NCBI RefSeq assembly: GCF_003334765.1
Contig: NZ_QOWT01000009.1
Source: Escherichia coli
GTDB lineage: Bacteria > Pseudomonadota > Gammaproteobacteria > Enterobacterales > Enterobacteriaceae
Strand: one strand, 5' to 3'
DNA: 64,000 nt
The translations under genes and the position numbers were made by a program. The notes beneath the pieces were generated by a model. The model saw only the letters and a list, made by a program, of their open reading frames with translations, made no database searches and was not told where the DNA came from. Below are positions 10,327 to 10,841 of this stretch, one piece after another (positions within the stretch are counted from its first letter, which is position 1; each line of letters begins with the position of its first letter).

Positions 10327-10599
10327 TCAACTGCGAATATCATCATACTCCCGCGTTTTATCAAATTCATGTTTCGCAAATGGGCATAATGGGATAATTT
10401 TTCGTTTTTCCCGACGCATTTTTTCCACGACTTTCGCAACCAGCTGTTTACCAATCCCTTGCCCTTTCAGGCTTTCATCGACATCGGTATGTTCGATAAT
10501 CGCTAAATTCTCTCCGGTCGGCACAAAGACAATTTCAGCGATTTGCTTGCCTTGTTTGTCATTAATGTAAAATTTATTGTGGCCTTCGCGTATTTCCAT
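10327..10599 (-). CDS. yjdJ: Small GNAT-family acetyltransferase-like protein YjdJ (90 aa)
   Basis: Full ORF with GNAT acetyl-CoA-binding-like motif (QGIGKQLV); recognised. Confidence 0.85.
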
Positions 10600-10610
10600 T
10601 TTACCCTCGC

Positions 10611-10841
10611 TTATTTATGACGGTATTTCAGCGCGCCGCTCGGGCACGTATCAATCACTTTAACCACAGTGGCGACGTCGACTTCATCCGGCATGATCCA
10701 CGGCTTTCGTTTGAGATTAAATAACTTGCCGTTGCCACGTACGCAATTGCCAGAATGCTGACATATCGCAGTGTTGAAATAGACATCGATCTTTTCGCCG
10801 GTATAACAGCGATAACCCCCGTCCAGTAGCGCCTGATCCAT
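10611..10841 (-). CDS. yjdI: Small cysteine-rich protein YjdI (76 aa), probable metal/Fe-S binding
   Basis: Full ORF with Cys residues (CYTG...CQHSGNC...DTCPSG); 11 bp upstream of yjdJ on the same strand. Confidence 0.8.

Follow-up and report, generated by a model that had tools for sequence, protein, structure and literature searches.

The yjdI-yjdJ operon of Escherichia coli: a conserved pairing of a predicted Fe-S protein with a minimal GNAT

The yjdI-yjdJ operon – two small genes encoding a predicted iron-sulfur (Fe-S) protein and a minimal GNAT acetyltransferase homologue – lies within a 64,000-nucleotide stretch of Escherichia coli DNA (RefSeq assembly GCF_003334765.1, contig NZ_QOWT01000009.1), the whole of which is referred to here as the window. 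YjdI and YjdJ behave as one evolutionary unit and, in many species, as one physical unit. Because they always travel together and are fused to each other in other bacteria, they almost certainly work as a unit, with natural fusions in the same gene order providing the strongest evidence. Our best overall explanation is that the known yjdIJ operon encodes a single two-subunit, stress-induced Fe-S/GNAT unit with the chemistry proposed below, to which we give a probability of about 0.55. The gene identities together with the claim of one functional unit are, taken alone, very probable; the specific chemistry, taken alone, is doubtful.

This segment of the window is E. coli chromosome bearing a catalogued operon, and the identities of the genes are already known. 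The genes, their families and the structure of YjdJ are present in public databases, YjdI and YjdJ being name-giving or structurally solved members of their families, and the annotation itself is known. A previous reading of this DNA, made from the sequence only, described the pairing as functionally unexplained; this still holds, and our literature search found no paper discussing an Fe-S/GNAT coupling of YjdI and YjdJ. The present study adds evidence for the pair as a functional unit, from conserved adjacency, recurrence and natural fusions. The cassette is found in nearly all E. coli, is stress-induced in two phyla, and joins an Fe-S protein to the smallest known GNAT.

Adjacency and natural fusion of yjdI and yjdJ

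A search of the window for open reading frames (ORFs) places both genes on the minus strand, yjdI at 10611-10841 and yjdJ at 10327-10599. The genes and the positions within them that are discussed below are as follows (aa, amino acids; CoA, coenzyme A).

10611..10841, minus strand: yjdI coding sequence (76 aa), a predicted Fer4_19 single-cluster ferredoxin-like Fe-S protein (ORF, PF06902, AF2 model, Foldseek)
10743..10763, minus strand: codons for C27-Q-H29-S30-G-N-C33 of YjdI, with the first two conserved, putative cluster-ligand Cys residues (sequence and homologue alignment)
10641..10646, minus strand: codons for C66-P67 of YjdI, the third conserved putative ligand, "CP" of DTCPSG (homologue alignment)
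10600..10610, minus strand: yjdI-yjdJ intercistronic spacer of 11 bp, TAA GCGAGGGTAAA ATG, which includes the yjdJ Shine-Dalgarno sequence GAGGG
10327..10599, minus strand: yjdJ coding sequence (90 aa), a minimal GNAT of the Acetyltransf_CG / COG2388 family (ORF, PF14542, identity to PDB 5I0C)
10450..10467, minus strand: codons for K45-G-Q-G48-I-G50 of YjdJ, the GNAT motif-A glycine loop binding CoA pyrophosphate (sequence and homologues)
10384..10386, minus strand: codon for C72 of YjdJ (PLCPFAK), the family-defining Cys (homologue alignment)

These coordinates confirm the earlier description of 76-aa and 90-aa ORFs separated by 11 bp and divergent from dcuS, which begins at 11022 on the plus strand across a 180-bp intergenic region. 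Downstream of yjdJ, ghoS and ghoT follow on the minus strand beyond a 226-bp spacer (10101-10326). RefSeq annotates the region in the same way (ghoT, ghoS, yjdJ, yjdI, dcuS), with the product names "4Fe-4S mono-cluster protein YjdI" and "GNAT family N-acetyltransferase" for YjdJ. Full-length matches to PF06902 and PF14542 exclude chance as the origin of either ORF, and two overlapping ORFs in other frames, one of 126 aa on the plus strand and one of 83 aa on the minus strand, are artefacts of a mechanical ORF list. A 1.6-kb query around yjdI-yjdJ recovers the locus from 5415 of 5426 complete E. coli genomes.

A genome scan with an alignment of 11 YjdI sequences, using one genome per species, yielded 316 loci, and the best 80 of these – all from Enterobacterales – were analysed. 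The sequence-only reading had proposed an analysis of co-occurrence. In all 80 of these species loci, a yjdJ homologue lies directly downstream of yjdI (77-99% identical), with a spacer of ~10-17 bp. In individual look-ups, the pairing is also seen in Listeria fleischmannii, in which an 84-aa Fer4_19 protein is followed after 12 bp by a 93-aa PF14542 protein, in GCA_000526675.1 with a 1-bp gap, and on a metagenomic contig with a 4-bp gap, where the YjdI homologue is 49% identical to that of E. coli. In Listeria monocytogenes, lmo0133-lmo0134 are described as YjdI and YjdJ homologues that form one sigmaB-dependent operon (PMC2813243).

In L. fleischmannii (locus L086:4001-4549), YjdI is ~70-74% identical to its E. 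coli counterpart, and the adjacent YjdJ is 47% identical. This asymmetry could reflect either tighter constraint on the Fe-S partner or different gene histories, possibly including horizontal transfer. The Listeria pair has a gene for a metallo-beta-lactamase (MBL)-fold hydrolase and a glyoxalase-family gene upstream, with LtrA downstream, and the pair in GCA_000526675.1 has as neighbours MarR, two glyoxalase-family genes and a flavin reductase; these Firmicute neighbours of detoxification type are not common to Enterobacterales.

Proteins in which both Pfam domains are fused form at least 53 clusters at 90% identity, including ones from Sporosarcina and Psychrobacillus isolates; at 50% identity, those among the top 150 representatives fall into seven separate clusters. 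The fusions share one order, an N-terminal YjdI part followed by a C-terminal YjdJ part, and are 164-196 aa long, and the fusion ORF was confirmed on independent contigs. Foldseek searches of AFDB50 recovered fusions from Psychrobacillus, Enterococcus cecorum, Brevibacillus, Paenibacillus, Pseudolactococcus and Proteiniclasticum, together with apparent full-length fusions from Flavobacterium, Aquimarina and Chitinophaga; the fusions span Bacillota and apparently Bacteroidota. YjdI homologues that are linked to a GNAT align from YjdI residues 1-8, whereas those fused to CDGSH domains mostly align from about residue 7-13, and the N-terminal helix and the GY(R/K)xY motif look like a signature of the GNAT-associated Fer4_19 clade.

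PF14542 domains also occur fused to tRNA_bind (PF01588) and DUF1653 (PF07866) domains (P0354, P0364-P0370), which fits a catalytic core that borrows small partner domains. A 164-aa protein named "NATD1" from the myxozoan Thelohanellus kitauei (A0A0C2M7T7) is 41% identical to a bacterial fusion over its full length. Because eukaryotes are reported to lack Fer4_19 altogether (PMC5859297), this entry probably represents bacterial contamination or horizontal transfer.

YjdI and YjdJ as members of their families

YjdI matches Pfam family Fer4_19 (PF06902, "divergent 4Fe-4S mono-cluster"; E 5.4e-30), with residues 13-76 covering all of the model (1-64 of 64). It has four Cys residues (12, 27, 33 and 66), and its motif is C27-Q-H29-S-G-N-C33 ... 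C66-P67 (C-x-H-x3-C-x32-C-P). The earlier reading had reported Cys residues in C-x-C spacing, of which YjdI has none; the DTCPSG that it also pointed out is indeed present. An alignment of 50 diverse homologues shows full conservation of C33 and C66 and near-invariance of C27, H29, F41, P47, W48, P67, A70 and L71. Conservation does not extend to C12 in the same 50, and among 60 parsed Enterobacterales sequences a Cys occupies this position in only five, all from Escherichia, with almost all others having Ala or Val. Of 264 Fer4_19 members, 144 have Ser, 80 Ala, 19 Val and only 1 Cys at the position of the second Cys of classical ferredoxins, which is S30 in E. coli. The conserved His at the H29 position is replaced by Lys in 9 of 52 fusion proteins. 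One 178-aa fusion from a JGI metagenome (P0256) has CFRCANC in place of CxHxxxC, by which the His is lost and the classical four-Cys CxxCxxC...CP arrangement is restored.

Judged from its sequence, YjdI is a three-Cys protein of the pattern CxxXxxC...CP. The RefSeq label "4Fe-4S" follows the name of the Pfam family; a classical [4Fe-4S] ferredoxin has four Cys residues (CxxCxxC...CP), and YjdI has Ser30 at the second of these positions. Because three Cys ligands are conserved, the predicted cluster is most likely either [3Fe-4S] or a site-differentiated [4Fe-4S]. An AF2 model of YjdI (pLDDT 96.2, pTM 0.83) predicts a single-cluster ferredoxin fold, and its best eight Foldseek matches in the PDB are all single-cluster [4Fe-4S] or [3Fe-4S] ferredoxins (probability 0.91-1.0, TM 0.53-0.67); a sequence search of the PDB with YjdI gave no match.

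The C-terminal Fer4_19 domain of the Syntrophomonas wolfei flavodiiron protein contains a [3Fe-4S] cluster with a potential of +70 mV, as determined by electron paramagnetic resonance (EPR), resonance Raman spectroscopy and His mutants, and the His is not a cluster ligand (bioRxiv 10.1101/2024.04.03.587993). The same preprint refers to a PhD thesis for spectroscopy of YjdI itself, with a UV-visible spectrum of Fe-S type. The suggestion of the sequence-only reading that YjdI carries Fe-S or zinc is narrowed by these findings: the Fe-S option is supported by the three-Cys ferredoxin pattern and the ferredoxin-like model, and the zinc option is not.

YjdJ belongs, as a complete protein, to a GNAT family whose members are naturally small. 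It matches Acetyltransf_CG (PF14542; E 2.1e-24) with residues 9-88 spanning the model from end to end (1-80 of 80), and its residues 1-90 are identical to chain A of PDB 5I0C, "Uncharacterized protein YjdJ". A Staphylococcus aureus homologue, solved as 1R57/2H5M ("Acetyltransferase, GNAT family"), aligns over residues 1-88 (E 4e-19). The protein had previously been read as a truncated acetyltransferase; its GNAT nature stands, but the complete model match and the solved structure lead us to reject a truncated or pseudogenised GNAT. The Gly positions of the CoA-binding loop are kept in 51 and 45 of 52 fusions. C72 is invariant in all 52 fusion proteins and in all 10 homologues compared, whether paired, unpaired or fused to other domains, and across such YjdJ relatives E22, T38, V40, G46, C72 and A75 are invariant, with H37 nearly so.

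For the PF14542/COG2388 family, an acetyl-Cys intermediate and a macromolecular substrate have reportedly been proposed. Our literature search on At1g77540, SACOL2532, COG2388 and NATD1 found no functional data. In a published screen, YjdJ was one of 25 GNATs overexpressed in acetylation-null E. coli; it is absent from the list of those giving acetyl-lysine bands and is not among the four that inhibited growth (PMC6199490).

Expression and genomic setting

The yjdIJ operon is expressed. Following a shift of E. coli to acid, yjdI and yjdJ are both up at least 2-fold at 5 and 10 min, alongside rpoS, and in E. coli O157 both rise on entry into stationary phase, as described in the literature. In L. 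monocytogenes, the sigmaB dependence of lmo0134 was confirmed in a second study (PMC7690807), and the lmo0134 protein has been detected by proteomics. Papers on sigma54 and on chaperones in which yjdI appears gave no further information. Two regulatory features were noted upstream of yjdI.

10842..11021, no strand assigned: divergent yjdI-dcuS intergenic region, the presumed site of the yjdIJ promoter (from position only)
10875..10885, minus strand: GCTATGCTTAT, a weak candidate for a -10 element of sigmaS type, lying 33 nt before the yjdI ATG

A sigma-70 scan of 10842-11021 gave no convincing minus-strand promoter. The sequence GCTATGCTTAT matches 10 of 11 positions of the consensus KCTAYRCTTAA, and the sigmaS-like -10 is suggestive only. 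At the other end of the operon, no intrinsic terminator was found by a terminator scan of the 226-bp yjdJ-ghoS spacer (10101-10326, minus strand), which folds no better than shuffled sequence (z = -0.8), and there may be read-through from yjdIJ into the ghoST toxin-antitoxin operon. An Rfam scan of 9000-11500 gave no match.

The flanks of the pair vary greatly. Among the 80 Enterobacterales loci, ghoST adjoins the pair in 4, dcuSR orthologues adjoin it in 6, and a DcuS/CitA-like pair (27-32% identical) adjoins it in 9 more; neither ghoST nor a dcuSR or DcuS/CitA-like pair is adjacent in the remaining 65, and yjdIJ is unbroken at every one of the 80. The neighbouring ORFs form many unrelated clusters, of which the largest is represented at 19 of the 80 loci; among their products are a transporter, a LysR regulator, a LysE-type exporter, a PgaC-like protein and a HlyD-like protein. 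Because the pair is kept throughout and the flanks differ, the ghoST and dcuSR neighbours are incidental. The position between a toxin-antitoxin pair and an anaerobic C4-dicarboxylate sensor, which the earlier reading had taken as potentially meaningful, is specific to Escherichia and uninformative on function, and we reject a functional link of yjdIJ to either dcuSR or ghoST.

In Enterobacter and Lelliottia, yjdIJ is divergent from genes for a sensor kinase and response regulator, a CitA/DcuS-family paralogue that is 27-32% identical to DcuS/DcuR (loci L028, L042, L044, L045, L049, L050, L053, L055 and L062, at ~1200-2870 on the minus strand); this placement could be a coincidence or the remnant of an older synteny. 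Morganella morganii has a YjdJ homologue (L091:2501-2884) that is 61% identical, has no adjacent yjdI, and is part of an aberrant 127-aa product with an unaligned C-terminal tail; it may be a copy that is decaying after loss of its partner gene. Several E. coli strains have an IS1 element interrupting an otherwise identical 9500-11100 interval, so that the match is in two pieces (NZ_CP182145.1, NZ_CP068680.1, NZ_CM182542.1 and NZ_CP103596.1). Strain 4848 has yjdI annotated twice, suggesting that IS1 splits or duplicates part of the gene. The window has no IS1 within 9500-11100.

Proposed mechanism, alternatives and known systems

We propose that YjdI and YjdJ are translated from one transcript and act as a single two-subunit unit whose expression would be induced by general stress, in stationary phase and by acid in E. 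coli and through sigmaB in Listeria. YjdJ would bind CoA or acetyl-CoA and take up the acetyl group, probably through an acetyl-Cys72 intermediate, and would then pass it to an amine or a macromolecule. YjdI is envisaged as docking on YjdJ as the partner that the minimal GNAT lacks, and may either gate its activity through the redox state or integrity of the cluster, or help to recognise the target. If the Fe-S subunit gates acetyl-CoA chemistry, the redox or iron status of the cell would be linked to acylation, and the pair may illuminate orphan eukaryotic relatives such as NATD1 and At1g77540. The published acetyltransferase screen examined YjdJ alone and aerobically; the adjacency and the fusions argue for studying both proteins, anaerobically.

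Several observations weigh against this proposal. PF14542 genes occur without a partner in Morganella and in a Vicingaceae metagenome-assembled genome, and among more distant members Fer4_19 is found alone or joined to a CDGSH or flavodiiron domain. No fixed YjdI-YjdJ interface is predicted by the fusion models: in the AF2 model of a natural fusion both domains fold well (pLDDT 92), but pTM is only 0.60 and the linker is of low confidence, and AFDB fusion models superpose on it over their full length with a root-mean-square deviation (rmsd) of 8-15 A. Matches to the sigmaS-type -10 occur at a chance rate, with 6 found and 5.3 expected per window. We infer the physical interaction of YjdI with YjdJ and all of the chemistry; the acetyl-Cys idea goes back to the Pfam/COG2388 literature. 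Overexpression of YjdJ alone under aerobic conditions gave no new acetyl-lysine bands (PMC6199490), a result that is compatible with YjdJ needing YjdI, having a dedicated target or using an acceptor other than lysine.

A bolder form of the proposed mechanism would make the pair the prototype of a hitherto undescribed class of CoA enzymes that serve the general stress response and are gated by an Fe-S cluster. An open-site or labile cluster in YjdI would sense oxygen, oxidants or iron status and control the chemistry of Cys72, possibly with C72 as the fourth cluster ligand, such that transfer of acetyl or CoA to a dedicated target occurs in one redox state only; the class would extend from Enterobacterales to Firmicutes and Bacteroidota, as a pair or as a fusion. 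We regard this as rather unlikely. Somewhat less likely still is that YjdI is itself the substrate of YjdJ, acetylated on a lysine or at its N-terminus in a self-contained modification system that tunes its potential, stability or choice of partner. A minimal GNAT with no obvious substrate pocket would suit such a role, as would the Pfam description of PF14542, which is said to propose a macromolecular substrate. So would the tight coupling and occasional fusion of the genes, the conserved basic residues of KRKPW, and the Lys at position 12 of most non-Escherichia members (GYRKY); the proteome-wide Western blot without new bands for YjdJ alone also fits one small dedicated target. However, position 12 is Cys, Ala or Val in Enterobacterales, and an enzyme fused to its stoichiometric substrate would perform one turnover only, which would be unusual. 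It is improbable that the unit instead performs CoA-thiol redox chemistry, with the GNAT fold serving only to bind CoA, C72 forming a mixed disulfide or persulfide with it, and the YjdI cluster supplying or removing electrons, for example in reducing CoA disulfides or protein-CoA adducts during stress. Such a role is consistent with the electron-transfer function of Fer4_19 in a flavodiiron fusion protein, its common fusion to redox-active CDGSH domains, the invariant Cys beside the CoA site of YjdJ, the stress induction of the pair, and the glyoxalase-family, MBL-fold and flavin-reductase genes near it in Firmicutes. But those neighbours are not conserved, unpaired PF14542 proteins retain the same Cys without an Fe-S partner, and the idea is purely speculative; we know of no precedent for it in the GNAT superfamily.

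Three further alternatives to the two-subunit Fe-S/GNAT unit are poorly supported. That yjdI and yjdJ are functionally unrelated and merely co-transcribed is very unlikely. Both families do occur independently in many genomes and the fusion models predict no interface, but adjacency persists at 80 of 80 loci despite scrambled flanks and the pair is conserved across Proteobacteria and Firmicutes; the explanation is strongly disfavoured by the fusions, which keep one domain order in at least 53 clusters from apparently two phyla. It is highly improbable that YjdI holds a structural zinc or other metal in place of an Fe-S cluster. The protein is small and contains Cys and His, and the PDB sequence search gave no solved structure for the family; against this stand the ferredoxin pattern CxxXxxC...CP, the family member with a classical CxxCxxC, the ferredoxin fold of the model, and the [3Fe-4S] assignment of a homologous domain by EPR and Raman spectroscopy, together with the Fe-S-type spectrum that the preprint reports second-hand for YjdI. 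A zinc-ribbon or zinc-finger mini-protein in particular is rejected, as YjdI has neither CxxC knuckles nor CxC and is modelled with a ferredoxin fold. A GNAT-type toxin-antitoxin module similar to TacAT, AtaRT or KacAT is effectively refuted. Its superficial appeal is the order of a small gene and, immediately after it, a GNAT gene, beside another toxin-antitoxin pair, ghoST, but that adjacency is found at only 4 of 80 loci, and the antitoxin family, toxin size and toxicity all argue against it: YjdI is ferredoxin-like and not a ribbon-helix-helix/DUF1778 antitoxin, and YjdJ belongs to another Pfam family, is half the size of GNAT toxins (about 160-175 aa), and lies outside the four growth-inhibiting GNATs (PMC6199490). 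Neither protein has a PADLOC match, all NCBIfam matches are below the curated cut-off, and fusion of a toxin to its antitoxin in over 50 clusters is not expected.

The pair resembles TacAT, AtaRT and KacAT in that a GNAT gene comes after a small gene, but differs in the fold of YjdI, in the family and half size of YjdJ, in its lack of toxicity on overexpression, and in the existence of fusions. The best structural matches of YjdI are single-cluster ferredoxins with a CxxXxxC...CP arrangement, from Thermotoga maritima (1VJW), Desulfovibrio africanus (FdI, 1FXR), Pyrococcus furiosus (1SIZ/2Z8Q) and Bacillus thermoproteolyticus (1IQZ). Identity to these is only 12-24%, with Foldseek E values of 0.02-0.26, and YjdI differs in its Ser at the second-Cys position, its conserved His and its N-terminal extension. 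With the Fer4_19 domains at the C-terminus of the S. wolfei class E flavodiiron protein and in CDGSH fusions, YjdI shares the C-x-H-x3-C...C-P motif and a predicted ferredoxin fold, and the AlphaFold models of YjdI and the flavodiiron C-terminal domain superpose with 1.5 A rmsd (bioRxiv 10.1101/2024.04.03.587993). Unlike the flavodiiron- and CDGSH-fused domains, YjdI stands alone and is coupled to a GNAT, and the GNAT-linked clade has an additional N-terminal helix and the GY(R/K)xY motif.

YjdJ is a full-length member of the PF14542/COG2388 family, which also includes S. aureus SACOL2532 (1R57/2H5M), Arabidopsis At1g77540 and human NATD1. It has the same glycine loop and invariant Cys as SACOL2532, and At1g77540 is reported to acetylate histones weakly. 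Our literature search found no report that the S. aureus, plant or human PF14542 proteins have an Fe-S partner; in contrast to other members of the family, the YjdJ clade is marked by obligate adjacency or fusion to YjdI.

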